In this document: positions 15,315 through 31,543 of the stretch, piece by piece
Numbering within the stretch: position 1 is the first letter of the stretch
Layout of the letters: each line of letters opens with the position of its first letter
Origin: an uncultured Gemmatimonadota bacterium
GTDB taxonomy: Bacteria > GCA-2686955
Reading direction: 5' to 3'
Assembly: GCA_964490075.1 (NCBI GenBank)
Contig: CAZBBK010000048.1
Coordinates: 1 to 42,746 of the forward strand
DNA: 42,746 bases
Translations under genes and position numbers: made by a program
Notes under the pieces: generated by a model
Told to the model about the DNA's origin: nothing
Databases searched by the model: none
Seen by the model: only the letters and a program-made list of their open reading frames with translations

Positions 15315-17006
15315 TCAGGCCCAGTAGCCGACACCGCGCAGGGTGTCGCGAATCGCCTGGGCCTCGTCCGGGAGCAGAGACTTCCGGCGCCTTTGCGCGG
15401 GTCGCATGCTGCGCTGGCCCGGGTGCCCCGGCGGTCTCGATGCGGGGCGTCTCTCCGCGCTGGTCTCGGGGATCAGAGAGGCCCCGTCGAGCTCCGGGCG
15501 CGGCGCGATCCCGAGCATCCGGAGCACGGTCGGGAAGATGTCGGTTACGTGTGCTCCGGTCACCGATCCCGGTGCCACCCGGTCGCCGACCATCAGCAGC
15601 AGGCCGTCGAGGCGATGGTCCCCCGAGTTGCCGGTCGCCCGCTCGAAGCGTCGTCGGGTCGAGAAGTCGAAGGCGCCGAGCGCCTTGTGACGCATGTCGG
15701 AGGGCAGTGCGATCAGATCGGGGGCGAAGGGCACGAAGGGCCCGCGATAGAGCTCGGAGCCGCGCCAGATCGGGTCGAAAAGCGGCCGCCCGTCGGGTGC
15801 GCTGACGCCGCGCAGCGCGTCGCTCAGCGCGGCCAGCAGGTCGTCGGCGGGGGTACCCGGCTCCACGCAGCCCCGCGGCTCGCGGCCCTTCAGGTTCAGG
15901 AAGATCTGGCCGTAGTTGCCGCGCGAATAGGCCCGGGTGCGCTCCCAGTCGACGTCACGCAGGCTCAGGAAGAGGCGCGAGAGGGGACCGACCAGAGCCT
16001 GGCGCTGCCCGAAGCCGCGCGAGAGTCTCAGCCTTCCGAGCCCGAGCGCGGCCGCCCAGCGGTAGACCTTCAGCGGCGAGAGCCCGAGCCACAGCACGGT
16101 CCCGCGAATGCGCGCCGGGGCATCGCGGCGCAGCACCAGGAAGCCGAGCTCGAGCAGAATCTGGTTCATGCCGTAGTAGTGCTCGATCGGTCCGAAGCCG
16201 TGGTCGGAGACGATCACGCCGTGGTCGCCAGGGGCCAGCATCTCGAAGAGCTCGCCGAGCATTCCGTCGAGCTCGGCGAAGTACTCTCGAACCCGCGGCA
16301 GGTGGCGCCGCGCCTCCTCGGGGTCGTGACGCGGATGGGTGGTGTCGAGCAGATGCCAGAGCTCGTGCTGCAAGCGGTCGGTTCCCCAGATGTGGACGCA
16401 GAAGAGGTTCCAGGAGCGGCTCTCGCTCAGGTGGCGGCAGACCTGGCGGCGGTGGCGCAGCTCGCGAAAGAGCTGATCGAGGATGGAACCGACTCGTCCC
16501 CGGGCATAGACCTCGGTGATGTGCAGGGGATAGGGACCGAAGAGCGCTTCGAGCTCGTCGCGCAGCTCGGGCGGCGACGAGATGCCCCGCGCTCCGGGGG
16601 GCGCCAGGAATCCGGAGATCAGCTCGCCCTCGATCTCCGGCGGCGGATAGGTCACCGGCATGTTCAGCACGATCGAGCGACCGCCGGCGGCGCCCACCTC
16701 GTCCCACAAGGTGGCACCGCGGCGCAGGTCGTTGCTGACCGGCACCTCGTTCTCCCAGCCCCCCTCCTTCACCAGGAACTCGAAGATCCCGTGGCGCCCC
16801 GGGTTCAGTCCGGTGACGATCGACGACCAGGCGGCGGCGGTCACCGGCGGCACTACGGTGTGCAGGGGCCCCCGCGCACCGCTCCGCGCCAGCCCCGCCA
16901 GCCGGGGCATCGCCCCGTCGTCGATCCAGCGCTGGAGGAGCGGCCACGACGCGCCGTCGAGCCCGATCAGGACCACCCGGCGCTGCTCTTTGTCGATGGC
17001 GCCCAT
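15315..17006 (-). CDS. Alkaline phosphatase superfamily protein (type I phosphodiesterase / nucleotide pyrophosphatase)
   Basis: IGLDGA, PPVTAAAWSSIVTGLNPGRHGIFEF, TDRLQH, VSDHGF, SGDHR, DIFPTVL, C-terminal LRGVGY. Confidence 0.9.
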   Translation of the reverse strand: MGAIDKEQRRVVLIGLDGASWPLLQRWIDDGAMPRLAGLARSGARGPLHTVVPPVTAAAWSSIVTGLNPGRHGIFEFLVKEGGWENEVPVSNDLRRGATLWDEVGAAGGRSIVLNMPVTYPPPEIEGELISGFLAPPGARGISSPPELRDELEALFGPYPLHITEVYARGRVGSILDQLFRELRHRRQVCRHLSESRSWNLFCVHIWGTDRLQHELWHLLDTTHPRHDPEEARRHLPRVREYFAELDGMLGELFEMLAPGDHGVIVSDHGFGPIEHYYGMNQILLELGFLVLRRDAPARIRGTVLWLGLSPLKVYRWAAALGLGRLRLSRGFGQRQALVGPLSRLFLSLRDVDWERTRAYSRGNYGQIFLNLKGREPRGCVEPGTPADDLLAALSDALRGVSAPDGRPLFDPIWRGSELYRGPFVPFAPDLIALPSDMRHKALGAFDFSTRRRFERATGNSGDHRLDGLLLMVGDRVAPGSVTGAHVTDIFPTVLRMLGIAPRPELDGASLIPETSAERRPASRPPGHPGQRSMRPAQRRRKSLLPDEAQAIRDTLRGVGYWA

Positions 17007-17066
17007 GCCTCTAGCGTATCATCGTCTTGCCTCGAGGCCCGCGCCGCGCGAGAGGATCCGGAGCCG

Positions 17067-17303
17067 ATGCTCGTTCTGACCCGAAAACTCGACCAGACGA
17101 TCCGAATCGGGGATTCGATCTCGGTGACCGTGCTGGCGGTCGATCGCGACCAAGTGCGGATCGGCATCTCGGCGCCGCGTGCGGTTCCGATCCACCGCCA
17201 GGAGGTGTTCGAGGAGATCCAGGCGGCGAATCGCGCCGCCGCGGTGAGCGAGCGCCCCGATCTGCGCTCGCTGCAGGCAGATCTGGAGCGGCCGGGGGAG
17301 TAG
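17067..17303 (+). CDS. csrA: Carbon storage regulator (translational repressor)
   Basis: MLVLTRKLDQTIRIGDSISVTVLAVDRDQVRIGISAPRAVPIHRQEVFEEIQAAN; hidden at the end of spurious ORF 13380-17303; GGAG RBS. Confidence 0.95.
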   Translation: MLVLTRKLDQTIRIGDSISVTVLAVDRDQVRIGISAPRAVPIHRQEVFEEIQAANRAAAVSERPDLRSLQADLERPGE

Positions 17304-17392
17304 GGAAGGCCGGGGGCGCCGCGGCCGGCCCCGCCGCAGTTTTCGGCATCGCAAAGAGGTGGAGGCCGCGGCGTGCCATTATCCTTCAGCCC

Positions 17393-19909
17393 ATGAGGCA
17401 ACGCGTCCCGACCCCCAACGAATCCGCCAGACCGGGACCCAGATCTCGGGTGCGGAAGGACCTCCGTCGCGCGCTGCGTCGCGCCCCCTCGATTCTGTCG
17501 GCGATCTTCCTCGTGGGGTTCGCCCAGGTTGCGGATGGCGAGGTTCTGGAATACCTCGGTCGCTACGACTGTCAAGATGGCCCCGACCACCTGATGGATG
17601 TGCTCGCGCTCGAGGATGATCGCGCCATCGTCGCGAGCAACCAGGCTCTGGCCCTGGTCGACCTGGCGGCGTTGCCGCCGCAGGGGACCCAGACCTACTT
17701 GTCGAGGCTGCAGGGGCTCAACGCCCGTGACGTGGTCGGCAGGGACGAGCGCTGGTTCTACGCCAACCTCAACCGCACGGGCAACGGCGGCAGTGCCGGC
17801 GTGGCCGTGGTCGAGCGGCTGGACGACGAGCTGGTGCTGCGGACGACGCTCGAAGAGACCGATGTGCTCTACGAGAAGCCCTTCGTCACCGCTTCCCACC
17901 TCTACGTGCCCGCGCATGGCGGCGGCCTGCGCGTGTTCGAGCTGACCGACCCGGCCATGCCCACGCTGGTAGGCAGCTTGACCCAGGGGCTCGACGACGC
18001 CTGGGCCGTGGCCGTGGCTGGAGCACGCGCCTATGTGGCCGATGGCGCGGGTGGTCTCAAGGTCGTCGACGTGACGGATCCAACACGGCCGGTGCTGATC
18101 GGTGGCGAGAGCATGGCGCAGGCCCTGGGAACCGCCGAGGCCGTAACGGTTCACCAGGGCAACGTCTATGTGGCCGCTGGGAGCGCGGGCGTAGCGTTCT
18201 ATCGCGGGGGAGATCCCGCGGCTCGCGCCAACTTCCCGGTCGCCGGTTCGGCGGAGGATCTGGACGTCACCGGCAACAGGCTCGTGGTCTCGGACTTCGC
18301 GGGTCTCGCCGTCTTCGACATCGCTCCCGACGGCTCGCTGCTGCGCCTCTGTGGAGAGACGGCCCACCGGCGCTTGGCGGGTTCGCGTGTGAGGCTGCGA
18401 TTGTGTGAGGGGGTGGATGCGACCAACGACGGACGCGTTCTTTGCGGCAACTGGAACTACATGGATGTCTACCGGCTGCGGGCCGCCGGTGCCGCCGAGC
18501 AGCCCGATATCGATGCTTCGACCCAGCGGCTGAGATTCGCGGCCGGCGGCGGAACCGCCGAGGTGCAGGTCTCCAACGACGGAGACGCCAGCCTCAGCAT
18601 CACCGGCATCTCCTGTGGCTCGCCCGCGTTCTCCTTCGACCCCGCGGGAAGTGTGCTCGAACCGGGTGAGAGTATGACTCTGGATCTCGCCTATACGCCG
18701 AGTGGCGTGAGAGACGAGGGCATCCTCGAGATCGCCAGCAACGATCCCGACGAGGCGATTCTGCCGATCCAGCTCTTCGGTCGCACTCAGTATCTGGATC
18801 CCGGCGAGACCGCGACGCCATTTGCGCTCCCGCTGTGGCGCAAGGACCAGGGCGGGACCTGGCTGGAATCCGATTTCGAGCTCGCGGCGCACGCAGGGAA
18901 GATCGTGTGGTTCCAGGTCTACGGACTCTGGTGACCGGCCTGCGCGCCCGCGGTCGCGGACATGCAGAATTCGATCGTTCGAGAGTTCGAGAATCACCCC
19001 AAGGTCGAGGTCGCGGTCTTCGACGAGGGCGGCGATCACGGCGAGACCCTGGACTGGGTTCAGTTCTGGTGGGAGCGCGTCGCCCTGCGGGGCGGCATCA
19101 TCTGGGACGAAGACGGCTCGGTCGGAGGGAACCTCTACGGGCAGCCTTCCACGGGCCTTCCTTTCGGCCGTGGGTTCATCATCGATCCCGACGGCATCGT
19201 CGATACACCCTACTTCGGTCATCGGCCGAAGGCCGCGATCGATCGGATCTACGAGCTGCTGGCCGCCGCTCCCTGCGAGGCGCTCGAGGTGACCGATTCG
19301 GTCTCCCCGTCATCCCTGTTCGTCGGAGACGTCGACTCGGGATCCGTCTCGCTGAGGAACTGCTCGAGCGACCCGATCGCCGCTCGGCTCGATTGGGATT
19401 GTGAGTGGTTGGAGCTGGCGCCGGATCAGCTCGTCATCCCCGCGCAGACCACCGTCGATCTGGCGCTGGATCTGAATGCGAGGAATCTGATCCCCGGCGG
19501 CTACACCTGCCCGATCACCGTGTCGTTCCACGACACCAGCACGGTCCGTGTCTCGATCGACCTGGAAGTGGAATCGCCGCTCGCCATCGAGGTGGTCGAG
19601 GATCCGACCAGCGCGCGCCGCGGCGAGGTGCTGCGCTGGCGGCTCGCGGTGCACAATCGCAGCGACACATCCAGGGCCGCGGATGCCTGGTTCGACGCCT
19701 ATCTTCTGAATGGCAGTCCTCATCCCCTCAACCCGATCATCGGCCCCCTCGCCGGCACGATTCCGCCGGGAGCGACCGAAACCTACTGGTTGGCGGTGGC
19801 CATCCCGGCCGGAGCACCGATCGGGGGGCCGTACCGAATCTGCAACCAGCTCGGAAGTCACCCGGCCTTGTGGGACTCGGACTGCTTCGAGTTGGAGATT
19901 CGGCCTTGA
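17393..19909 (+). CDS. Putative exported selenoprotein: LVIVD repeats + ASH/Ig-like domain + TlpA/AhpC-TSA redoxin (UxxC) + two Ig-like domains; UGA at 18932-18934 read as Sec
   Basis: ORFs 17027-18934 and 18962-19909 are in frame and joined by TGG TGA CCG GCC TGC (W-U-P-A-C) within a thioredoxin fold (GKIVWFQVYGLW-U-PAC...LPFGRGFIIDPDGIV). LVIVD-type repeat AYVADGAGGLKVVDVTDP. N-terminal signal-like segment. Start could be GTG 17450. Confidence 0.82.
18935..18967 (+). promoter_or_regulatory. Candidate bacterial SECIS element
   Basis: Stem CUGCG (18940-44) / UGCAG (18963-67), upper stem CCGC/GCGG, apical loop GGUC (18952-18955) starting 18 nt after the UGA; the same loop and similar spacing as the E. 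coli fdhF SECIS. Confidence 0.7.
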
Positions 19910-19936: not shown

Positions 19937-20749
19937 CTACCGAGACCAGCGCCGCCGATCGAACACCAGCGTGAGCCCCCAGCTCTCCCGGCGCAGGAGG
20001 GGGATGCGGGCGATGACCTCGTCGATGGCGATCAGGGCCCGGGCCCAGCGCTCGCCGCGGCCGACGTGGGCCAGGAGGGGCAGCAGGTCGAGCATGCCGC
20101 ACAAGGGGAAGGCGAGGTAGCCGAAGCGCTCCCTGGCGACCAGGTCGAAGCCGGCGGCGGCGCAGCGCTCGACCAGCCAGCGCGAGGGCAGTGCGTGGTG
20201 ATGCTCGCCGAAGCGGGCCGACCAACGGCGCCAGGCCCAGCGCGGCAGGCGCAGGTGGAGTGCGTCGTGCGAGGGCTCGGAGACCACCAGCCGCCCGCCG
20301 GGGCGCACCACCCGTCCCAGCTCGGCGATGCCCTGCTCCACGGCCGGCAGATGATGCAGTGCCCCGCGGCACACCGCTGCGTCGAAGGTGGCGTCGCCGA
20401 AGGGGAGCCGCGCTCCGTCGCCGCGCACCACCCGCGGCGACCTGCCGCTGGCGGCCAGCATGTCGGGTGACAGGTCGATTCCCACGGCATTCGGGTAGCG
20501 GCGGGCGAGCGCGTCGAGCAGCACGCCGGTGCCGCAGCAGAGATCGAGCACCCCGGCCGGGGCCGAGTCGGGCAGCCGGCGCAGCAGCCGGCCATTCCAC
20601 CAGTCGTGATAGACCCGCCCCGCCGCGGGGCGGTGGCGCTTCTCATACTCCGCCGCCAGCCGGGCGTGCAGCTCGATCTCCGCGGCGCGAGTGGCCTTCG
20701 CCGGTGGGGCGTGGCGGGTGTCCGGGTCGGTTTCGATGCCGATCATCAC
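19937..20749 (-). CDS. Class I SAM-dependent methyltransferase (type 11)
   Basis: VLDLCCGTG, GIDLSPDML, GDGARLPFGDATFD, ALHHL, RVVRPGG. Confidence 0.88.
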   Translation of the reverse strand: MMIGIETDPDTRHAPPAKATRAAEIELHARLAAEYEKRHRPAAGRVYHDWWNGRLLRRLPDSAPAGVLDLCCGTGVLLDALARRYPNAVGIDLSPDMLAASGRSPRVVRGDGARLPFGDATFDAAVCRGALHHLPAVEQGIAELGRVVRPGGRLVVSEPSHDALHLRLPRWAWRRWSARFGEHHHALPSRWLVERCAAAGFDLVARERFGYLAFPLCGMLDLLPLLAHVGRGERWARALIAIDEVIARIPLLRRESWGLTLVFDRRRWSR

Positions 20750-20825
20750 AGTGGCATGATCGTCCCGAAGGTGCCGCCCTTCACTGCAATCTCAGGGTCC
20801 GCGTCACAGCGCCGATCTTTCCTCC

Positions 20826-21740
20826 ATGCAACCTGCCCTCCTCGCCGCACACGCCGGGCCCGCTTCAGGGGACCGGCACGGCTGCCGCCTCTGCGGCGCT
20901 TTCGAGACCGAGCCGCGCTGGTCCGTCGACGGCTATTCCATCGATCGCTGTGCCGCCTGCGGCGTGCTCTTCGTGGTCGACGTGCCCGACTCCGATACCC
21001 TGTCGGCCCACTACGGCGACATCTACCGCGCCCGCTCCGAGCCCTACGGCGGCGGAGATCCCCGCGACTCGGCGGGGCGGCGCAACGCCCGCGGGCGGGT
21101 GCGGATGATCCGCGCCGCCGCCGGCCGCGGCAGCCTGCTCGACGTCGGCTGTGGTGGCGGGGACTTCCTGATCGAGGCCCGGGAATCGTTCGACGTGCAC
21201 GGCGTCGAGGTCAACGAGCAGGCGGCCGCCCATGCGCGCTCGCTCGGCCTGCCGGTCAGCGTGGCGGCCGACCTGGGCGACCTGGTGGCGGCGGGGCGGC
21301 GCTACGACGTCGTGACTCTCTGGGACGTGATCGAGCATCTGGCCGATCCCGTCGGCGCCCTGTGCCAGGTGCGGGCTCTGCTCGCGCCCGACGGGCTGCT
21401 CTTCATGACCACCGGAGACGCCGGCAGCCTGGCGGCGCGCGCCAGCGGCCGCCGCTGGCACCTGCTGACCCCGCCGCTCCACCTCTTCTTCTTCACGCGC
21501 ACCTCGATGGCCTGGATGCTCGACCGGGCCGGCTTCGCGCCGCCCGCGATCCGCTACCCGGCGCAGAAGGTAGCGCTCGGCTTCGCCGCCTTCAAGCTGG
21601 CGGACCGCGCGCCCTCGCCCTTCACCCGCACGGCGCAGCGCCTGATCGACCGCCTGCCGCTGCGCCGCTGGGCGCTGGGCGTCAATCTGTGGGACGTGAT
21701 GCTGGTCGCCAGCCGCGTTTCCGGCTCAATCGAGGCGTAG
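20826..21740 (+). CDS. Class I SAM-dependent methyltransferase with N-terminal zinc ribbon
   Basis: CRLCG...CAACG, LLDVGCGGGDFL, YDVVTLWDVIEHLADP, HLFFFT. Confidence 0.88.
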   Translation: MQPALLAAHAGPASGDRHGCRLCGAFETEPRWSVDGYSIDRCAACGVLFVVDVPDSDTLSAHYGDIYRARSEPYGGGDPRDSAGRRNARGRVRMIRAAAGRGSLLDVGCGGGDFLIEARESFDVHGVEVNEQAAAHARSLGLPVSVAADLGDLVAAGRRYDVVTLWDVIEHLADPVGALCQVRALLAPDGLLFMTTGDAGSLAARASGRRWHLLTPPLHLFFFTRTSMAWMLDRAGFAPPAIRYPAQKVALGFAAFKLADRAPSPFTRTAQRLIDRLPLRRWALGVNLWDVMLVASRVSGSIEA

Positions 21741-22706
21741 CGCGAGGTAGCGGATCGTTCCCACGTCGTAGAAGCCCAGGCGGCGGTAGAGCCAGCGAGC
21801 GGCGCGGTTCTCCCGGTCGACGTCGAGGCGCACCGTCTCCGCTCCTTCGGCGGCCATCGCCGAGAGCCCGGCCTTCATCAGCCGCCGGCCCCATCCGCGA
21901 CCGCGCACTCGCGCGCGCACTCCGATGTCGTCCAGAAAGGCCTCCCGCTCGGAGCGGCGGCTCCATTCGAAGAAGCCTTCCGCCTCTCCCGAGTCGGCCC
22001 CCACGCCGATCAGCACCCGCTCGGCGCCGGCCCCTTCGCGCGCCAGGCGCTCCGCTCCACCGCGCTCGCCGTGCGGGTGGTACATCCAGGTGTCGCCCAG
22101 CACTTCGTCGAGCAGCTCGCCCAGGATCGCGGCTGGGTCCCGCCCGGTGCGCTGGGCGTGGTCGCCCAGGGGCTCGATGAAGGACTCCCCCAGGGTCGCG
22201 CCGCGCACCAGGTCGGCGTCGCTCAGCGCGTCCCAGCTGCCGGAGAGCGCACGCTCCATCTGGGAGTAGATCCGCTGCTCGCGATAGCCGCGGTTGTGCA
22301 GCACGATGCGCCGCTCGTGATCGGCCCCCTCGACCTCGAAGCGCAGGCAGCGCCAGCCGCGCGCGGCGGCCGCGTGCTCGGCCGCGTTGAGCAGGGCGTG
22401 GGCGCAGGGGCGGTGGCGCACCGAGAGGTCGGGCGCCAGGAAGGGGCCGAGCGCGGTGAAAAACTCGTCCTCGCGGTAGAGCGCGATGAAGCCGTCGATG
22501 CCGCTGCCCGGGTGCGGCTTCACGAACAGGTCCCTGCGCGGATCGCGGCCTTCCTCGGGAGCGGCGAAGGCTTCGCGAAAAGCCTGCTCGCCCGGCGCCC
22601 TGCCGTCGGGGGCGATGCGTCCCATCAACGTCAGCAAGGCGGGAAGATCGGATTCGGAGAAGGGGCGCACGGAGGGAGCCGGGCGGGAAAGGGCCAGAGC
22701 GCTCAT
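21726..22706 (-). CDS. Tandem GNAT acetyltransferase
   Basis: C-terminal IGVRARVRGRGWGRRLM and LDVDRENRAARWLYRRLGF; degenerate N-terminal GNAT half. Overlaps the convergent gene by 15 bp. Confidence 0.82.
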   Translation of the reverse strand: MSALALSRPAPSVRPFSESDLPALLTLMGRIAPDGRAPGEQAFREAFAAPEEGRDPRRDLFVKPHPGSGIDGFIALYREDEFFTALGPFLAPDLSVRHRPCAHALLNAAEHAAAARGWRCLRFEVEGADHERRIVLHNRGYREQRIYSQMERALSGSWDALSDADLVRGATLGESFIEPLGDHAQRTGRDPAAILGELLDEVLGDTWMYHPHGERGGAERLAREGAGAERVLIGVGADSGEAEGFFEWSRRSEREAFLDDIGVRARVRGRGWGRRLMKAGLSAMAAEGAETVRLDVDRENRAARWLYRRLGFYDVGTIRYLALRLD

Positions 22707-22881
22707 CTTGAGACCTCTTTCTCTTCTGGTCCGTCAGCGTGCGGCGGCGGCCGCCATGGAGCCCTGCTACCGGTAACTCTGGTCTTGGCGGCGGGCGCTG
22801 ACAAGGGCCGATCATCAAGCGGCGGCGATTCCGGGCGATTCATCAGGAGAGCTCGTCCATCCACGCCAGCCCAGGGGTCCC

Positions 22882-25800
22882 ATGTCCAGGAAGAAGAACC
22901 GGAAACGCTCCAAGGCCGGGGCGCGATCCCGATCCGGCGCCGCCAAACCGCCGCGAGCCAGCACTGGCCTCCCGGCCCGCGCCGACGGCACCCCGACGCT
23001 CACGGTTTCCATGATCGCGCGCGATGAGGCGGAGCTCCTACCGGCCTGCCTGGCCAGCATCGCGGATCTCGCCGACGAGATCGTGCTGGTCGATACCGGC
23101 TCGGCCGACGCCACCATCGAGATCGCCCGCCGCCACGGCGCCCGCATCGGCCACTTCGAATGGGTCGACGACTTCGCCGCGGCGCGCAACGCATCGTCGG
23201 CCATGGCACGCGGCGACTGGGTGCTGAGCCTCGATGCCGACGAGGAGATCGACGCGGCCGACCACGCGCGAATCCGCAGGCTGATCGCCGCCGACCGCGC
23301 CGATGCCTTCCAGATGACCACCCGCAACTACTGTCAGCGGGTCACCGCGCCGAACTTCCGGCCCGACGACGGCTCCTACCCGGGGCGCTGCCTCAGCGAG
23401 CCAGGCTGGGTTCCGTCCATCAAGATCCGGCTCTGGAGGAACCACCTCGGCCTGGAGTGGCGGCGACCGGTCCACGAGCTGATCGAAGGCAGCGCCCAGG
23501 AGCTCGGCGCGCGCATGCTCTCCACCGCCGTGCCGATCCATCACTACGGCCTGACCCAGCGCAGCGCAGCCAAGCAGGAGCACTACTTCCAGCTGGGATT
23601 GCGGGCCATCGAGGAGAACCCGCTCGATTCCGGCGCCCACCTCGAGGTGGGGTTGCTCTCGGTCCATCGCGGCGAGATCGAGAAGGCGCTTGAGCACCTC
23701 GCCCGCGCCGCCGAGCTCTCGCCGCGTCCGGCCAATCCGCTGGTGCAGATGGCGGGAGTGCTGCTGACCGAGATGCGCTTCGACGAGGCCCGGGAGCGCC
23801 TGGAGACCGCGCTCGAGCTCGAGCCGGACAACGGCGAGGTGCTGCACGCCTTTGGCGTGCTCGAGCATTTCGGCGCGGGCGACAGCACCAAGGCGATCTC
23901 CTACCTGCGCCGATCGCTCGAGGTCAATCCGGACTACGCCCTCGCCCACTTCAATCTGGCTCGTTGCCGGCGCGCTCTCGGGCAGTCGGACGAGGCGCTG
24001 ATCGAGATCCGCCGCGCGACGGAGCTGGCGCCGCGTCATCTTCCGGTGCTGGAGATGCACGCCGGAATCGCCCTGGAGCTGGGCCGGCCCGAAGACGCGC
24101 TCTCGGTGCTCGACCGATCTCTCGAGGTTGATCCGGAGCACTGGAAGACGCACAACAACCGTGGCATCGCCCTGTTTCGTCTCGGTTCCTTCACCGAGGC
24201 CGAAGCGGCTCTCGACCGTGCAGAAGAGCTGCAGCCCGATTCCCCGGAGGTGCGCCGCAATCTGGCCGAGCTGGCGCGCCTGCGCGACGGTGGGGCGGCA
24301 TTCGAAGGCTGTCCGGGGGCACGCCGCCCCGGCATCTCGCTCTGCATGATCGTCAAGAACGAGGAGGACAACCTGGGACGCTGCCTCGAGAGCGCCGCGC
24401 CGGCCTTCGACCAGATCGTGGTGGTCGACACCGGCTCCAGCGATTCCACCCGCGAGATCGCCGCGGCGCACGGCGCCGAGATCCATCACTTCGAGTGGTG
24501 CGACGACTTCGCGGCGGCGCGCAACCGGTCGCTCTCCTTCGCCGAGTGCGAATGGGTCATGTGGCTCGACGCCGACGACGCCTTTCCCGCCGAGTCGGTG
24601 GCGCGGCTGCGCGAGCTGGTGGACTCCGGGCGCGCGCCGGCGGGGCTCCAGATCACTCTGCTCATGGCGCAGTCCGGGGCCTTCCGTCAGCGGGTCCGGC
24701 AGCTCAGGATCTTCCCCAACCGCCCGGGCATTCACTTCGAGGGGGTGATCCACGAGCAGGTGGTGCGCAGCCTCGAGGCGGCGGCGATCGGTGTCGAGCA
24801 GGCGGCGGCGATCGTGGTCGAGCACCTGGGCTACTCCGATGCGGGCGAGGTGCGCCGCAAGTCGGAGCGCAACCTGGCCCTGCTGCGGACCGCGGCGGAG
24901 GGCCTCGGCGCCACCTACGTCGATCGCTACAACCTGGTGCAGGGCTGTTTCGGCGCCGGGCGTGCGAGCGAGGCCGAAGCGTCTCTGGGCGCCCTGCTCG
25001 ACGACCGCCGCTGCCGCGCGGAGCGGCTCGATATCTGGTCCCATGCTTCGGTGCTGCGGGGACGGCTGCGCCAGGGACGCGGGGAGCACATGGAAGCGCT
25101 GGCCGACTTCGACCGAGCGGCCGAGGCCGATCCCCAGAGCGTCCTGGCCGCCTACTTCCAGGCGACCGCCCACAAGGCCCTGGGCGACTCGCGAGCGGCG
25201 CGGGCCGCGCTCTTGCGCGCCACCGTCGAGCCCGGCGCCGCTCCCGCGATCGCCACAGCGGCCGAACGGGTGCGTTACCAGGCCCTGATGGAGCTGGCGG
25301 GGATACACGTCGCCGAGGTCGATCTCGGCCAGGCGCGCGAGTTGCTGCAGCGCGCCATCGCGCTCGCCCCGGCCCACCCCGAGGCACCGATCCTGCTGGC
25401 CCGCGTCGATGCCCGCGCCGGTCTGACCGAGCAGGCGGCGCGGCTCCTCGAGAGCACGCTGGAGCTTGCGGGGCCGCTCCCGGAGCTGCTGCTGCCCCTC
25501 GGCAACCTCTACTTCGAGCGCCGCGATCTAAGGCGCGCCGAGTCGATCTACGCCCGTGCCGCGCCGCCGACCCCGAGAATCTCGGCCAACCTGGGCAAGG
25601 TGCTGGTGCTCCAGGGCCGCGACGACGAGGCGATCCCTCACCTGGAGGAGGCGCTGGAGGGCGCCCCCGAGCTCGGCGACCTGCATGGCGTTCTGGGCGA
25701 TGCCTATCTGCGCCGCGACAGACCCGGCGAGGCGCTCGAGCACTACGAGACCGCGTTGCGCTCCGGCCAGCCCAGAAGCGCCACCACGCTGGCCAAGATC

Positions 25801-25932
25801 AGCCAGGCCTACGCCCGGCTCGGTCACGACGAGTCAGCGCGTCTGGCCCACTCAGCGGCGCTGAGGTTGCGCGAGGGCGGCGCCCCGGCCGGTTCCGCGC
25901 CGGTGGATCCGTCCCCGGCCCGCCTCCCGTGA
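22882..25932 (+). CDS. GT2-TPR-GT2-TPR glycosyltransferase, probable flagellin glycosyltransferase
   Basis: Two modules of the type S(L/V)xMI(A/V)(R/K)(D/N)E...VDTGS...FEWxDDFAAARN...LDAD...HE...HxG, each followed by TPR repeats; directly upstream of flagellin. Confidence 0.9.
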   Translation: MSRKKNRKRSKAGARSRSGAAKPPRASTGLPARADGTPTLTVSMIARDEAELLPACLASIADLADEIVLVDTGSADATIEIARRHGARIGHFEWVDDFAAARNASSAMARGDWVLSLDADEEIDAADHARIRRLIAADRADAFQMTTRNYCQRVTAPNFRPDDGSYPGRCLSEPGWVPSIKIRLWRNHLGLEWRRPVHELIEGSAQELGARMLSTAVPIHHYGLTQRSAAKQEHYFQLGLRAIEENPLDSGAHLEVGLLSVHRGEIEKALEHLARAAELSPRPANPLVQMAGVLLTEMRFDEARERLETALELEPDNGEVLHAFGVLEHFGAGDSTKAISYLRRSLEVNPDYALAHFNLARCRRALGQSDEALIEIRRATELAPRHLPVLEMHAGIALELGRPEDALSVLDRSLEVDPEHWKTHNNRGIALFRLGSFTEAEAALDRAEELQPDSPEVRRNLAELARLRDGGAAFEGCPGARRPGISLCMIVKNEEDNLGRCLESAAPAFDQIVVVDTGSSDSTREIAAAHGAEIHHFEWCDDFAAARNRSLSFAECEWVMWLDADDAFPAESVARLRELVDSGRAPAGLQITLLMAQSGAFRQRVRQLRIFPNRPGIHFEGVIHEQVVRSLEAAAIGVEQAAAIVVEHLGYSDAGEVRRKSERNLALLRTAAEGLGATYVDRYNLVQGCFGAGRASEAEASLGALLDDRRCRAERLDIWSHASVLRGRLRQGRGEHMEALADFDRAAEADPQSVLAAYFQATAHKALGDSRAARAALLRATVEPGAAPAIATAAERVRYQALMELAGIHVAEVDLGQARELLQRAIALAPAHPEAPILLARVDARAGLTEQAARLLESTLELAGPLPELLLPLGNLYFERRDLRRAESIYARAAPPTPRISANLGKVLVLQGRDDEAIPHLEEALEGAPELGDLHGVLGDAYLRRDRPGEALEHYETALRSGQPRSATTLAKISQAYARLGHDESARLAHSAALRLREGGAPAGSAPVDPSPARLP

Positions 25933-25976
25933 ACGAGAAATCGCCGAGGCCCTCGCCAGCAAGGGCGTTTGGACCC

Positions 25977-26004
25977 TAAAGCCAACCGGCCCTTCGCCCG
26001 ATGG
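25977..26004 (+). promoter_or_regulatory. Sigma-28 (FliA/SigD)-like promoter of flagellin
   Basis: TAAA (25977-80) - 16 nt - CCCGATGG (25997-26004) versus consensus TAAA-N15/16-GCCGATAA; flgM is in the locus. Confidence 0.7.
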
Positions 26005-26110
26005 TATGCGTGAGCGCCATAGAAGCCGGACTCCCCTCCGCTTTCATGGACTCACGCCGAAACGAGGGCGTCGAGCCGCCAGGCGCGACGCTCTCAACCA
26101 CCAAGAGCAG

Positions 26111-26234
26111 CGAGGCAAGGACGCCTCGTCGGCCCGCCCGGCCTCGGCATTCACGAAAGCCGCGAACCGGGGACGGAGTCGGGATCGCGCCGCCGCTCAG
26201 GAGGAAGGCGGGGGCGGCACCCATCACGGAGGAT
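26111..26234 (+). promoter_or_regulatory. CsrA-binding sites in the flagellin 5' UTR
   Basis: Hairpin CGAGGC-AAGGAC-GCCTCG (26111-26128) and ATC-ACGGAG-GAT (26223-26234) overlapping the GGAGG Shine-Dalgarno; further GGA motifs at 26046, 26173 and 26198. Confidence 0.7.
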
Positions 26235-26239
26235 CGAAG

Positions 26240-27961
26240 ATGTCTTTGCGCATCAATCACAACATCGCGTCCATGAACGCCTTCCGAAACTTGACGAAGG
26301 TCGAAGGTGGGCTGAACAAGAACCTGGAGCGGCTGTCGAGCGGTCTGAGGATCAACTCGGCGGCCGACGACCCGGCGGGTCTCTCCATCTCCCAGCAGTT
26401 CCGCGCTCAGATCGCCGGGCTGGGGCAGGCGATCGAGAACGCCGAAATGTCGATCAACATGCTGCAGACCGCGGAAGGCGCCCTGGCCGAGGTCCACAAC
26501 CTGCTCACCAACATGCGTGAGCTGGCGGTGCACGCCTCCAACGCGGGCGTCAACGACGCCTCGATGCTGGCGGCGGACCAGGATCAGCTCGAGTCGGCGC
26601 TCGGCACGATCAACCGCATCGCGCAGGAGACGCAGTTCGGCAGCCAGTACCTGCTGGACGGGTCGGCCGACAACTCGATCGGGATCTCGACCAACGCCTC
26701 GGACATCGAGGTGGCGCAGAACTCCACCCTCTCGGAAGGTTTCCACACCATCACCGTGAGCTCGGTAGTGGACGAGAGCCAGTTCATCGACAACGAGTCG
26801 TTGGGGCTCTCCGATCCCGCCAGTGTCGACGGGTTGGCCTCGGGCGACCACCAGGTCGTGGTCACCCAGGAGTCGGTCGGCGCCACGATCGCGGGCGACG
26901 ACATCGACTTCACCAACCCCTTGACGATCGCGGCTGGCACCAACGACCAGTTCGTGCTTTCGCTGGACGGTGGAGCCGACATGACGGTCACGATCGCCGC
27001 GGCCGCCTATGCCGACGCCGATACGCTCGCCACGGCGATCTCGACCGCCGTCAATACGGCGTTGTCGAACGCCTCGCTGTCGACCGCCGAGATCACCGTC
27101 GACGACTCGAGCGACCACCTGGAGTTCGTCACCGGCGACGAGGGCTCGGCTTCCTCGATCAGCATCCACGACACCGGTCTGACCAACTCCGCGCTGGCCG
27201 ATATCAACGTGACCCAGCAGGTGACGGTCGGCACCGATGCGATCGTGACCCTCGACAACCAGGTCAACTACATCTACGACATCGACCACATGAACACCGG
27301 CACGGCCACCTTGCAGGACAAGGATGGCAACACCGTCGACTTCACGGTCGGTATCGCGGGTGATGGCTTGACCCTTGGCTCCACCACCCTCACCTTCAAC
27401 GCCAAGAGCTTCCTGGTCGATCTCGACGGAGAGGTGCAGGGGCGTTTCGAGGTAGGCAAGACCGACACCATCACCAACGGTCGGGAGTCGATCGACATCC
27501 GCTTCGGCAGCGACGTCACCGCGGGGATCAACAAGATCCGCGCCGAGGACAACTCGCTGCGCTTCCAGATCGGAGGCAACGAGGGTCAGTACAAGGCGAT
27601 CTCCATCGCCTCGATGTCGGCCACGCAGCTCGGCCTGACCGACAAGAAGCTGACCGCGGTCGATGTGACCAACTTCGATGGAGCGCAGGAGGCGATCGAG
27701 ATCATCGACGCGGCCATCGAGGCGGTGTCGTCCGAGCGCGCCGAGCTGGGTGCCTTCCAGACCGATGTGCTGGAGTCGACTTTGTCGAACTTGAGGATCT
27801 CTCACGAGAACCTCTCGGCGGCCGAGTCGTCCCTGCGCGACACCGACATGGCGGCGGAGATGGCGAGCTTCACCAAGCACCAGATCCTGCAGTCCGCCTC
27901 GATCTCGATGCTGGCGCAGGCCAACCAGCAGCCGCAGGCGATCCTGTCGCTGCTCGGCTAG
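26240..27961 (+). CDS. fliC: Flagellin (573 aa)
   Basis: MSLRINHNIASMNAFRNL...LERLSSGLRINSAADDPAGL...QTAEGAL; C-terminal RAELGAFQ...AAESSLRDTDMAAEM...MLAQANQQPQAILSLLG; GGAGG RBS. Confidence 0.97.
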   Translation: MSLRINHNIASMNAFRNLTKVEGGLNKNLERLSSGLRINSAADDPAGLSISQQFRAQIAGLGQAIENAEMSINMLQTAEGALAEVHNLLTNMRELAVHASNAGVNDASMLAADQDQLESALGTINRIAQETQFGSQYLLDGSADNSIGISTNASDIEVAQNSTLSEGFHTITVSSVVDESQFIDNESLGLSDPASVDGLASGDHQVVVTQESVGATIAGDDIDFTNPLTIAAGTNDQFVLSLDGGADMTVTIAAAAYADADTLATAISTAVNTALSNASLSTAEITVDDSSDHLEFVTGDEGSASSISIHDTGLTNSALADINVTQQVTVGTDAIVTLDNQVNYIYDIDHMNTGTATLQDKDGNTVDFTVGIAGDGLTLGSTTLTFNAKSFLVDLDGEVQGRFEVGKTDTITNGRESIDIRFGSDVTAGINKIRAEDNSLRFQIGGNEGQYKAISIASMSATQLGLTDKKLTAVDVTNFDGAQEAIEIIDAAIEAVSSERAELGAFQTDVLESTLSNLRISHENLSAAESSLRDTDMAAEMASFTKHQILQSASISMLAQANQQPQAILSLLG

Positions 27962-28564: not shown

Positions 28565-28879
28565 ATGAGAATCGGCCAAGGAAACGCAGCACACCCGGCC
28601 TACCTGGCGGCCCTCAAGGGGGCCGAGGAGGAGCGCAAGGGCCGGATGCGCGCAGATGCCGAGCCCGGCGACACGACGGTCAAGATCTCGCCCGAGGCGC
28701 GCGCCAAGCTCGCCGCCCTGGAGAGCGCCCGCGTGCACCAGGCCCAGATGCCCGACCTGTCCCAGGTCAGAGAGCAGAAGATCCGCGAGATCGAAGAGCG
28801 GATCGAGTCGGGCCACTACGATTCACCCGCGGTCAGTCGCGAGATCTCAGAGCTCTTGCTCTCGATCTACGGCGCCTAG
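28565..28879 (+). CDS. flgM: Anti-sigma-28 factor FlgM
   Basis: DTTVKISPEAR...VREQKIREIEERIESGHYDSPAVSREI; AGGAG RBS. Confidence 0.85.
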   Translation: MRIGQGNAAHPAYLAALKGAEEERKGRMRADAEPGDTTVKISPEARAKLAALESARVHQAQMPDLSQVREQKIREIEERIESGHYDSPAVSREISELLLSIYGA

Positions 28880-28900
28880 CCCCAGAGCCGAGGCAGCACC

Positions 28901-31543
28901 ATGATCCCGGCCACCAGCGTCTCCGGCCTCGTGTCGGGCCTCGATACCACGGCCATCATCAACGCCATCATGGCGGTCGAGCGGCGGCCGGTCGCGGTCC
29001 TGCAGAGCCGCCAGATCACCAAGACCGATCAGCTCACGACCTGGAAGGGGATCGAGGCGATGCTGCTGGGTGTGCAGACCCAGGCCGCCAGCATCATGCA
29101 GTCCTCGACCTTCCGGGCGGCCATCTCGGCCACCTCCTCCGACGAGGAGATCCTGACCGCGACGACCGAGAGCAACGCCGCCTTCGGCACCTACAATCTC
29201 ACCGTCAGCCAGCTGGCGCAGAATCACCAGATCGCGTCGATCGGCTACGACGATTCCGATACCACCTCGCTCGGCGACGGCACGCTGCAGATCAGCGTCG
29301 GCGACTCGACCAAGACCGTCACCATCGAGTCGGGCAGCGACACCCTCGAGGGAATCCGCGACGCCATCAACGAAGCAGGTGCAGGTGTCAGCGCCTCGAT
29401 CGTCGACACCGGCGCCGACTCCTACGGCAAGCAGCTCATCTTGACGGCGGAGGAGACCGGTGCCGACAACACCATCTCGGTGGTGTCAAACCTCTCCGGC
29501 GGGCAGCAGGCGCTCAGCTTCGCCGCTCCGGGCAGCGCGGCGGTGTCGGCCTGGTCGGGCAACTCGACCGCGGCCATCAGCACGCCGGGGGCCTACCAGG
29601 GAACGAGCGCCAATACCTACACTTTCACGGTCGGCACGCTCGACGACGCGGTGATCGACAGCCCCGATCTGGACGACTGGACCGGCGTCACACCGACCGT
29701 GGGCGGCAGCTACACCGGCTCCGAAGACAAGACCTTCGACTTCTACGTGGCGAGCGGTGGCACGCTTGGCACCGATACCATAGAGCTCACCGTCAGCGAC
29801 GGCCAGAACGTCGAGACGATCACCGTCGATCCCGGCTACGACGGCAGCCCGATCTCGGTCGGCAGCGAAGGTCTCACGCTCACTCTGCCCACGACCGGAT
29901 CGATGGTGGAGGGGGAGTCGTTCACCGTCGATGTCGAGACCGGTCACGGATTGGTCGGAGCCGACTCGCAGAGCGTGCTGGTCGATTGGAGCGACCTCTA
30001 CGGCAACAGCGGGCAGTTCAATCTCGATGCGAGCTACAGCGCCGGCGATGCGATCGACCTGGGAGACGGTCTCTCGGTCGCCTTCGACGCCGCATCGGTG
30101 GAGGAAGGCGATCAGTTCACGATCGACGTGACGCCGGGGTCCGGTGTCAACACCATTCAGGACGCCCAGGACTCCATCGTGCAGCTCGGCACCGGCGCCA
30201 ATCCGATCGAGGTGCACTCGGCCACCAACCAGGTCACGACGCTGATCGAGGGAGTGACGATCGACCTGCAGTCGGCCGATGTCGACACCACGGTCTCGCT
30301 CGCCATCGATCGCGACGATTCGGGAATCACCTCCGAGGTGCAGGGCTTCATCGATCGCTACAACGATCTGGTCCAGATGATCAACGATCAGTTCAAGTAC
30401 GACCAGGAGCTGGACCAGGCCGGAGTGCTCTTGGGCGACACCACTCTGATCGCCCTGCAGAGCCAGGTACGATCGTTGGTCACCGGAGTGCAGAACGAGA
30501 TCTCGGGCGACCTGCGCACGCTTGCCGAAGTTGGAATCCGCTCCGATACGGAAGGGAAGCTCTCGCTCAACAGCGCGATATTTCGTGCCGAGCTCGAAGA
30601 GGACTTCGAGTCGGTCGTGGCGCTCTTCGCGGAACTGGGCGATTCCACCGACGATGACGTCCTGTTCGTTGGATCGACGGACGACACCATCACCGAGGCG
30701 ACCGGATATCGGATCGAGGTCACCCAGGCGGCGACGCACGGGGAGCAGGCGGGAGAGCAGATCGAGGTCTCGGCCTCTCAGCAGGTGACGATCGACGCCG
30801 CCCACAAGAAGCTGCGCTTCACCATCAATGGCAAGGACACCGGCATCTTCAACCTCGAAGAGGGGACCTACGCGAGCGGCACCGAGCTCGCCGAGATGAT
30901 CGAGCGCTCGCTCTACGACGGTACCAGCATGGGCGCCGACGACGTCGAGGTGATCTGGGAAGAGGACTCTCTGAATCCCGACGAAGGCCGCCTGGTGATT
31001 CGTTCCTTGTCCTGGGGGTCCGACTCGACCGTGCAGCTCGAGGCCCCGCCTTCCAGCGCCAACGATCGGCTGGGATTGGGCTCCACCGGTGTCTCCTCGG
31101 GCGCCGACGTGCAGGGTCGTATCAACGGCCAGATGGCCACCGGCAGCGGTCGGGTCCTGACCTCGGCCGCCGGAGCCTCCGAAGGTCTCTCCGTCGAAGT
31201 GTTGCTGACCGCCGACGAGCTGGCGTCGCAGGGCGTCGACCAGGGCCATGTGTCGTTCACGCGCGGCATGGGCTTTCAGCTCAACGAACTGATCAACGAC
31301 TACACATCCGAGAGCGGCCTGGTCGGAGGACGGATCGGCTCGTTGCAGTCCCAGATCGACGTGCTCGCTGACGAGGTCGAGTCGATGGAAGAACGTCTCG
31401 TCAAGCGCGAGCAATCGTTGGTCCAGCAGTTCGTCGCCATGGAGGTGGCCATGAGCACCTTCCAGACCCAGAGCAGCTTCCTGACCGCCCAGCTCGCCGG
31501 TCTGCAGAATTTGAACCAGGCCATCGCCAACAAGGGCAAGTGA
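28901..31543 (+). CDS. fliD: Flagellar filament cap protein FliD, unusually long (880 aa)
   Basis: SGLVSGLDTTAIINAIMAVE, VSQLAQNHQIAS, IRDAIN..AGVSASIV, AQDS, NQVTTLIEGVTIDL, FIDRYN, GVLLGD, QQFVAME. Confidence 0.95.
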   Translation: MIPATSVSGLVSGLDTTAIINAIMAVERRPVAVLQSRQITKTDQLTTWKGIEAMLLGVQTQAASIMQSSTFRAAISATSSDEEILTATTESNAAFGTYNLTVSQLAQNHQIASIGYDDSDTTSLGDGTLQISVGDSTKTVTIESGSDTLEGIRDAINEAGAGVSASIVDTGADSYGKQLILTAEETGADNTISVVSNLSGGQQALSFAAPGSAAVSAWSGNSTAAISTPGAYQGTSANTYTFTVGTLDDAVIDSPDLDDWTGVTPTVGGSYTGSEDKTFDFYVASGGTLGTDTIELTVSDGQNVETITVDPGYDGSPISVGSEGLTLTLPTTGSMVEGESFTVDVETGHGLVGADSQSVLVDWSDLYGNSGQFNLDASYSAGDAIDLGDGLSVAFDAASVEEGDQFTIDVTPGSGVNTIQDAQDSIVQLGTGANPIEVHSATNQVTTLIEGVTIDLQSADVDTTVSLAIDRDDSGITSEVQGFIDRYNDLVQMINDQFKYDQELDQAGVLLGDTTLIALQSQVRSLVTGVQNEISGDLRTLAEVGIRSDTEGKLSLNSAIFRAELEEDFESVVALFAELGDSTDDDVLFVGSTDDTITEATGYRIEVTQAATHGEQAGEQIEVSASQQVTIDAAHKKLRFTINGKDTGIFNLEEGTYASGTELAEMIERSLYDGTSMGADDVEVIWEEDSLNPDEGRLVIRSLSWGSDSTVQLEAPPSSANDRLGLGSTGVSSGADVQGRINGQMATGSGRVLTSAAGASEGLSVEVLLTADELASQGVDQGHVSFTRGMGFQLNELINDYTSESGLVGGRIGSLQSQIDVLADEVESMEERLVKREQSLVQQFVAMEVAMSTFQTQSSFLTAQLAGLQNLNQAIANKGK

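Follow-up and report, generated by a model that had tools for sequence, protein, structure and literature searches.

The bacterial selenoproteins catalogued so far are mostly respiratory enzymes or redox proteins of small size. The thioredoxin-fold proteins TlpA, ResA and CcmG (DsbE) are cysteine-based, membrane-anchored, about 150-200 aa in size and serve the maturation of cytochrome c or of copper centres. Selenoproteins with a comparable fold appear in the table of a 2026 review (PMC13188914) under the entries 'Prx-like thiol:disulfide oxidoreductase' (PF00578), 'Redoxin family protein' (PF08534) and 'UGC-containing TlpA family', and the Global Ocean Sampling study (PMC2398784) names 'Prx-like 1' and 'Prx-like 3' and mentions, with a supplementary figure, fusions with unknown domains. 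LVIVD repeats were defined in cell-surface proteins (PMC2447325). The window analysed here, 42,746 nt of an uncultured Gemmatimonadota bacterium (assembly GCA_964490075.1, contig CAZBBK010000048.1), contains on its forward strand a gene at 17393-19909 that would combine an LVIVD beta-propeller and immunoglobulin (Ig)-like domains with a redoxin carrying selenocysteine (Sec, U). There is little doubt that this is a genuine single gene, predicted to decode an internal UGA as Sec. The best explanation of the whole, in our judgement very probable, is an exported selenoprotein of about 838 aa, most likely an extracytoplasmic selenol/thiol oxidoreductase whose substrate and final location are proposed below.

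Under translation table 11 the locus appears as two open reading frames (ORFs) in the same frame, 17027-18934 and 18962-19909. The preliminary description of this DNA had read them as one frame broken by a TGA within a W-U-P-A-C motif, with a product of about 838 aa that standard annotation would split, and all three points were borne out. Translated from ATG 17393 with TGA as U, the frame yielded 838 residues and a stop, with a single internal TGA at codon 514 in the context G-L-W-U-P-A-C-A-P-A-V-A-D-M-Q; the terminal stop at 19907-19909 is likewise a TGA. Candidate starts are ATG 17393 and GTG 17450, the latter being the choice of the gene caller, and a clear Shine-Dalgarno sequence was seen before neither. 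In the public protein collection the product is present only as a fragment of 494 aa with the end ...VYGLW (W513), and an 80 % identical relative is truncated at the same tryptophan. The runs that hold the window sequence are marine metagenomes, four DNA runs of one study, one of which may be the source of the window DNA; no RNA run was among those listed.

The read-through protein was searched against 61 genomes. All seven non-self matches spanning residue 514 had exactly one TGA, and the fetched loci had 11 sites of this kind, each with W-U-P-x-C; one belongs to a paralogue from the own genome (C77) and five belong to genome G039. Orthologous loci were obtained by scanning species-representative genomes with patterns downstream of the Sec site; the patterns derived from a three-row alignment (A3), the eight-row alignment A1 having yielded no sufficiently conserved stretch. 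The scan gave 28 loci (L046 duplicates L022) with 35-52 % identity from at least eight phyla, with record titles naming Fibrobacteraceae, Thermoanaerobaculia, Thermodesulfobacteriota, Bacteroidia, Planctomycetaceae, Phycisphaerales, Eisenbacteria, Cloacimonadota, Spirochaetaceae and Kapabacteria. The comparison of homologues, suggested earlier as a check, revealed TGA at the site in 21 loci and TGT or TGC in seven. The motif reads W-U-P-x-C in 19 loci, W-U-P-Y-T in two, both Phycisphaerales, and W-C-P-A-C in seven (Bacteroidales, Paludibacter, Kapabacteria, Spirochaetaceae). In the W-U-P-Y-T orthologues L070 (site 5464) and L073 (site 512) a threonine replaces the resolving cysteine and the lower stem of the hairpin described below is missing; L070 has a further in-frame stop 252 codons upstream of the Sec site. 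A 38-nt element pattern, which contains the TGA, retrieved 22 metagenome contigs, all of them in frame and in the same protein context. Residues W513, U514, P515, C517, D523 and P590 are invariant in the 8-row and 33-row protein alignments, and C517 is retained at 46 of 48 Sec or Cys orthologue sites examined. A profile search of 1.84 billion protein representatives returned 373,053 matches at E <= 0.001, the best 150 of which were mostly giant LVIVD/Ig repeat proteins, so that no family size is readable. Thirteen of 17 family representatives examined stop exactly at the tryptophan before the site, two have Cys, one is partial and one, the full-length relative P0028 (1271 aa), has W-S-P-G-A, thus neither Sec nor Cys, and may be a redox-dead member.

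Folding located a hairpin just downstream of the UGA, at the place where the preliminary description had seen a GGUC hairpin and likened it to the selenocysteine insertion sequence (SECIS) of fdhF. The lower stem pairs CUGCG with UGCAG (18940-18944 with 18963-18967) and the upper stem CCGC (18948-18951) with GCGG (18956-18959); the GGUC loop (18952-18955) begins 18 nt past the A of the TGA. As in Escherichia coli fdhF, the hairpin lies within the coding sequence and has a GGUC apical loop, which counted from the U of the UGA occupies nt 22-25 in fdhF (UGA codon 140) and nt 21-24 here. The likeness thus holds for the loop and, within 1 nt, for its position, while the stem sequences differ; the bulged U of the fdhF element has no clear counterpart. 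The exact pattern TGA-N13-CCGCGGTCGCGG occurred once in the window against 0.08 expected and matched in 8 of 100 shuffles. Taken alone, the hairpin of the window is not beyond chance, the DNA being GC-rich, and its significance therefore rests on conservation in homologues. All 22 Sec forms compared, from loci with a GC content of 0.39 to 0.70, retain CCCGCGGTCGCGGA(C/T)ATGCAG or a compensated variant; variant elements are CCTGCAGTTGCAG in L059 and CCGCAGTTGCGG in L073. The apical loop is GGUC (or AGUU) throughout these forms, and the hairpin is not kept in the Cys forms. For the four fourfold-degenerate codons under the upper stem (P-A-V-A) the third-position entropy in Sec forms was 0.27-0.44 bits, against 0.99-1.64 bits for other nearby fourfold codons; three of the same upper-stem codons reached 1.84-1.95 bits in the seven Cys forms. 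Fold energies over the stretch were between -11.3 and -16.7 kcal/mol for 20 of 22 Sec forms, -6.5 and -7.5 kcal/mol for the two U-P-Y-T forms without lower stem, and between -3.1 and -6.7 kcal/mol for six of seven Cys forms, with one at -14.8. Paralogue groups have other hairpins at nearly the same place, with the loops AGUUG, AGUUC, GGU and GUC. In runs X1-X4, which consist of contigs and give no reading of abundance or expression, the depth was about tenfold higher over roughly 50-80 nt within 18915-18996. The contigs responsible are long, come from other, more abundant organisms and match only 18928-18978, with four differences, and their flanks encode orthologous peptides; thus several organisms of the same samples carry orthologues. 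The hairpin is accordingly a candidate SECIS shortly 3' of the UGA, for which binding of SelB is predicted.

The genome, 95 % complete with 5.70 Mb on 136 contigs, of which C48 is the window, encodes the machinery for Sec insertion. A search for selA, selB, selD and tRNA-Sec had been recommended at the outset, together with the remark that no sel gene lies in the window; all four were found, over their cut-offs and outside the window contig, on contigs C3, C14, C68 and C65. The tRNA-Sec scored 75.2 bits against a gathering score of 47 and was classified by ARAGORN as SeC with anticodon TCA; selA (505.9 bits), selB (345.6 bits) and selD (317.9 bits, with its own single in-frame TGA) exceeded the curated cut-offs. 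Gene callers treat TGA 18932 as an ordinary stop, which would give two products, an LVIVD-Ig protein with W513 as its last residue and, from M524 on, a redoxin fragment devoid of its nucleophile, and some termination at UGA is indeed to be expected under selenium scarcity. As an account of the locus this is very improbable: the frame is open and conserved past the TGA in every homologue, seven orthologues have Cys at the site within one unbroken gene, the fragment from M524 would possess neither an active-site residue nor a signal peptide, and the synonymous-site constraint downstream is confined to TGA forms. The internal stop is likewise all that favours a mutated pseudogene, a misassembly or a code in which TGA is reassigned throughout the genome (e.g., code 4 or 25), an explanation we regard as already refuted. 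Two further samples of the same study have contigs covering 18932-18934 with zero differing letters, and a variant at these positions, such as the TGC or TGT named earlier as a possible finding, was not reported in the assembled-contig runs of that study. A local error is further contradicted by the TGA at the same codon in the 21 orthologous loci and the 22 metagenome contigs. Of the 17 AhpC-TSA matches of the genome 11 are free of internal stops, as are selA and selB, hence TGA is not reassigned genome-wide; most other genes examined also lack an internal TGA, and the codon is used as stop by the selenoprotein gene itself and by others.

Pfam matches and AlphaFold2 (AF2) models agreed with the domain order of the preliminary description: signal peptide, LVIVD propeller, Ig-like domain, redoxin and two further beta-sandwich domains. 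With the 33-row alignment, residues 50-629 were modelled mostly above 90 on the predicted local distance difference test (pLDDT), including most of the propeller, and a helix of low confidence was placed at residues 20-45. The start of the mature protein, VLEYLGRYD, is conserved, and a hydrophobic leader precedes it in the 27 orthologues with a choosable start. Foldseek with the full-length model returned generic WD40-like propellers only, with target-normalised TM-scores mostly of 0.6-0.7. The first Ig-like domain is all-beta in the model and reached 28.6 bits with the NCBIfam model choice_anch_D, under its cut-off of 45. In the redoxin, strands alternate with helices at a pLDDT of about 90, and W-U-P-A-C stands just before helix 517-532; in the alignments with 3or5_A and 3kcm_A, U514 stands opposite the first Cys of their WCPPC, and P590 would be the cis-proline of the thioredoxin fold. 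The nearest NCBIfam matches of the domain are ResA, DsbE and TlpA. The C-terminal 214 residues (625-838), modelled with the 21-row alignment A6, formed two beta-sandwiches (pLDDT 95.5) that in Foldseek resemble tandem Ig/FnIII-like arrays; in family members the first of these regions matched Cep192_D6 and HYDIN Ig models with E down to about 1e-7.

The last domain of about 110 aa matched no Pfam family. By tblastn it was also found in eight other ORFs of the genome, 0-23 aa from the stop, and in the relatives G002-G004 (loci L075-L094 in A6), in otherwise different proteins that share the motif ..NP..GP...PG....IP..APLGGPY...G..P..W.EDCFEF.V.P. The contigs listed with the domain are C89, C20, C51, C1, C19, C72, C68, C13 and C38. 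It has the look of a domain for sorting or anchoring that is specific to this lineage. Tails of type A of the type IX secretion system (T9SS), or FlgD-Ig tails, exceeded the cut-off of 23 in the paralogue on C77 (25.4 bits) and in a paralogue in locus L041 of genome G039 (30.7 bits); orthologue L022 had a weak T9SS match of 18.3 bits, under the cut-off. A PNPFNP...LVLLR-type tail, T9SS-like by eye, closes many other orthologues, and FN3-like or Cys/Asp-rich modules close others; the C-terminus of the orthologue L050 consists of IPTLSEWG followed by a hydrophobic stretch and RRR, a putative IPTL-CTERM-type sorting signal. The variety of C-termini indicates that this module was swapped between lineages. 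The genome itself encodes PorU (519 bits summed over the frame), three DsbD_TM proteins and 37 ORFs whose T9SS tails exceed the cut-off, the ORF of the window not being among them. Export of the window protein is likely on these grounds.

Several results weigh against a Sec-decoding exported redoxin, or at least against individual parts of the evidence for it. The 75-nt fold had no excess stability over shuffled sequences (z = +0.49), the energy of the 32-nt hairpin ranked 57th among 943 in-frame positions of the same gene, and Rfam gave no match within 18850-19100 at E <= 10. The pair counts speak for the hairpin, with caveats. In the 22-row alignment 91.4 % of the cells were paired, compared with 14.5-44.5 % for slid partners, a comparison that favours the counted structure as it was taken from the window sequence. 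Compensatory changes at three pairs were equalled by 3 of 500 shuffles; here the orthologue rows are related and no independent observations, the upper stem is nearly invariant, and the covariation rests on few sequences (L059, L056, L072). The redoxin of the window scored 19 bits with AhpC-TSA (PF00578), under the Pfam cut-off of 26, and its assignment consequently rests on homologues (L022 and L045 with 31.7 bits each, paralogues with 73.0 and 80.7 bits) and on the fold; its sequence matches in the PDB were weak (best E = 0.0045), yet consistently TlpA, DsbE or ResA. A T9SS sorting domain (TIGR04183 / PF18962) was not recognised in the window protein, and the 29 loci compared revealed no conserved neighbourhood that would suggest a partner or a substrate.

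For the mechanism we propose that SelB and tRNA-Sec would decode UGA 514 as selenocysteine, guided by the hairpin just downstream within the coding sequence. Sec514 and Cys517 would be the redox-active U-x-x-C pair of a thioredoxin-fold domain of the TlpA/ResA type, held between the propeller and Ig-like domain on the N-terminal side and the beta-sandwich domains on the C-terminal side. The exposed selenolate of Sec514 may attack an oxidised substrate, for instance a disulfide, sulfenate, polysulfide or peroxide, and Cys517 could resolve the adduct under formation of an intramolecular Se-S bond. Re-reduction might proceed by a periplasmic membrane relay of the DsbD/CcdA type or, at the cell surface, by thiols or sulfide from the surroundings. 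Substrate presentation or anchoring of the enzyme is the probable role of the propeller and Ig-like domains. As the sorting domain is located downstream of the UGA, only Sec-bearing chains would carry it and be sorted.

Thiol/selenol-disulfide oxidoreductase chemistry is given a modest preference over other uses of Sec. A peroxidatic Sec, by which the exported protein would be a selenoperoxidase of the peroxiredoxin (Prx) or glutathione peroxidase (GPx) kind and detoxify extracytoplasmic peroxides, appears unlikely, though it accounts for some of the data. Homologues score up to 80.7 bits with AhpC/TSA models of the peroxiredoxin superfamily, and the two Phycisphaerales orthologues with U-P-Y-T indicate that some members can do without the second Cys; these natural forms are compatible with a peroxidase-type or single-selenol mechanism. 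A U-x-x-T motif is listed in the review for a GPX-like selenoprotein family (PMC13188914). The same source gives TxxU for Prx, and the W-C/U-P-x-C at the start of helix 1 differs from the T-x-x-C of peroxiredoxins and is that of TlpA, ResA, CcmG and tryparedoxin. The best NCBIfam and PDB matches are, moreover, ResA, DsbE and TlpA, and the invariance of C517 in both protein alignments, with its rare loss at orthologue sites, weighs against the peroxidatic reading. Selenolate-thiolate pairs bind soft metals, and the U-x-x-C might bind or transform a metal or metalloid (Hg, Cu, As or Se species) in the exported protein; the sequence does occur in marine metagenome runs. Metal-binding selenoproteins with UxxU or CU motifs are listed as well (PMC13188914). 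Such a role is improbable, as none of the 29 loci compared has metal-handling genes beside the gene and fold as well as motif are of the thiol-disulfide oxidoreductase type.

In a quick maximum-likelihood tree, midpoint-rooted and with SH-aLRT support only, the seven Cys forms were one clade (support 100) nested among Sec forms, the paralogue outgroups were all Sec and the phyla were interleaved; one state change suffices on this tree. A selB over the cut-off was present in five of five tested genomes with Sec forms and in one of five with Cys forms. Most of these genomes are metagenome-assembled, and a missing selB is weak evidence there, except for two of the four selB-negative Cys-form genomes, which are complete chromosomes. 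We infer that Sec is ancestral in the LVIVD-Ig-redoxin family, that the gene moved between phyla, and that a single replacement of Sec by Cys took place, in a lineage whose hosts are mostly without the Sec trait. The near-universal SECIS is nucleotide-identical in Sec-form loci of at least seven named phyla and shares its GGUC loop with fdhF; it would therefore work in any SelB-bearing recipient. Putative sorting modules downstream of the UGA are T9SS tails, IPTL-CTERM-like anchors and the new ...CFEF.V.P domain. A joint reading as horizontally mobile, surface-displayed selenoenzymes with a portable SECIS and Sec-dependent sorting, which together form an extracytoplasmic layer of selenium redox chemistry, is offered tentatively and is rather doubtful at present. 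If true, the window protein and at least five other Sec-redoxins with signal peptides would act on external disulfides, polysulfides or peroxides.

In six further AhpC-TSA matches of the genome, an in-frame TGA would provide the U of a U-x-x-C motif (Table 1). The genes on C38, on C1 at 43334 and on C68 combine a leader and a Sec-redoxin with the C-terminal domain of the window protein. The genome seems to be rich in exported Sec-redoxins and, with at least seven Sec-redoxin genes, could be of use as a model of an extracytoplasmic selenoproteome. Locus L041 (G039:C1:106500-113800) has five TGA sites within 7.3 kb: two long genes in tandem with the order LVIVD-Ig-redoxin-Ig-T9SS (about 770 aa) and three small redoxins, one Sec-redoxin gene following each long gene; the small proteins have about 180-200 aa and the motif W-U-P-S/T-C, and the third extends past the fetched stretch. 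The surroundings of the selenoprotein gene, csrA and the genes at 19937-27961, look like a flagellin modification region. A redox partner was not indicated among the neighbours in the window, nor were cytochrome-maturation genes nearby; four Bacteroidales loci have one flanking ORF in common.

Table 1. Features of the selenoprotein gene, its neighbours in the window and further Sec-redoxin genes of the genome (prefixed by contig)
Feature	Position	Strand	Basis or remark
Whole selenoprotein gene	17393..19909	+	838 codons and TGA stop
Sec codon TGA (U514)	18932..18934	+	frame translation and homologue comparison
SECIS hairpin (predicted)	18940..18967	+	fold and homologue conservation; conserved nucleotide core 18928-18978
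Signal-peptide-like N-terminal region (aa 1-47)	17393..17533	+	Arg-rich n-region, hydrophobic SILSAIFLVGFA, then AQVA/DGE; inferred from sequence
LVIVD-repeat beta-propeller (~aa 50-365)	17540..18487	+	Pfam LVIVD PF08309, 48.6 bits, cut-off 20.2
Ig-like domain (~aa 373-463), HYDIN/VesB/ASH or choice-of-anchor-D type	18509..18781	+	Pfam PF22544, 29.8 bits, cut-off 25.5
Thioredoxin-fold redoxin (~aa 470-625), TlpA/ResA/'Prx-like' type	18800..19267	+	active site W513-U514-P515-A516-C517
Second Ig-like beta-sandwich (~aa 631-727)	19283..19573	+	AF2 with alignment A6, pLDDT 95.5; Foldseek
C-terminal beta-sandwich domain, ~110 aa (aa 730-837), end ...DCFELEIRP	19580..19906	+	tblastn, alignment A6
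Type I phosphodiesterase	15315-17006	-	window neighbour
csrA	17070-17303	+	directly upstream of selenoprotein gene
Methyltransferase (S-adenosylmethionine, SAM)	19937-20749	-	window neighbour
Methyltransferase (SAM)	20826-21740	+	window neighbour
GNAT acetyltransferase	21726-22706	-	window neighbour
TPR-glycosyltransferase (GT2)	22882-25932	+	window neighbour
Flagellin	26006-27961	+	window neighbour
Sec-redoxin	C77:19006	+	W-U-P-V-C
Sec-redoxin	C38:37416	+	W-U-S-S-C
Sec-redoxin	C1:43334	+	W-U-G-S-C
Sec-redoxin	C68:13644	+	T-U-G-G-C
Sec-redoxin	C1:204714	+	W-U-P-I-C
Sec-redoxin	C52, within 28734-29027	-	G-U-V-V-C

The protein had been called unusual. This stands for the architecture: in the literature searched, by titles and abstracts, a bacterial selenoprotein was never joined with LVIVD, a beta-propeller or type IX secretion, and no NCBIfam model covers the LVIVD-Ig-redoxin selenoprotein family. 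It does not stand for the chemistry, which is familiar, as UxxC redoxin selenoproteins are an already known, predicted kind. The architecture, the setting for sorting and a SECIS conserved to the nucleotide between phyla look new, and the family would span many bacterial phyla without having been noticed as a unit before. Since 13 of the 17 public representatives examined stop before the Sec, their redox domain and sorting signal are missing from annotation. With a Sec-redoxin fused to a surface-type propeller and to secretion tags, selenium chemistry would take place beyond the cytoplasm and perhaps even outside the cell. The conserved SECIS is a natural test of the portability of bacterial SECIS elements, and its E. 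coli-like loop makes reporter testing direct.

Compared with the Prx-like and Redoxin UxxC selenoproteins, families catalogued by Pfam/CDD accession and motif, the window protein has the same thioredoxin fold, Sec as the first residue of U-x-x-C, Cys homologues and a SECIS just 3' of the UGA, but its redoxin comprises residues 470-625 of a probably exported 838-aa protein of propeller, Ig-like and sorting-type domains. NF041054 of NCBIfam, a ResA-like WAxxUGC selenoprotein, is also a ResA-like redoxin, which homologues matched weakly (up to 32.5 bits, far under the cut-off of 300); its motif, however, is U-G-C, and the window protein had no match at E <= 0.01. With TlpA, ResA and CcmG the protein shares the position of W-C-x-x-C, the fold and probably the extracytoplasmic location, and donors of the DsbD/CcdA type are present in the genome, whereas its scores with these families lie far under the curated cut-offs, for example 15.9 bits with ResA against 170. 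Signal peptide, LVIVD propeller and Ig-like domains connect it to T9SS type A cargo and to LVIVD or choice-of-anchor surface proteins; a paralogue in the own genome and many orthologues end in Por_Secre_tail or FlgD_ig as such cargo does, while the window protein ends in another recurrent C-terminal domain.

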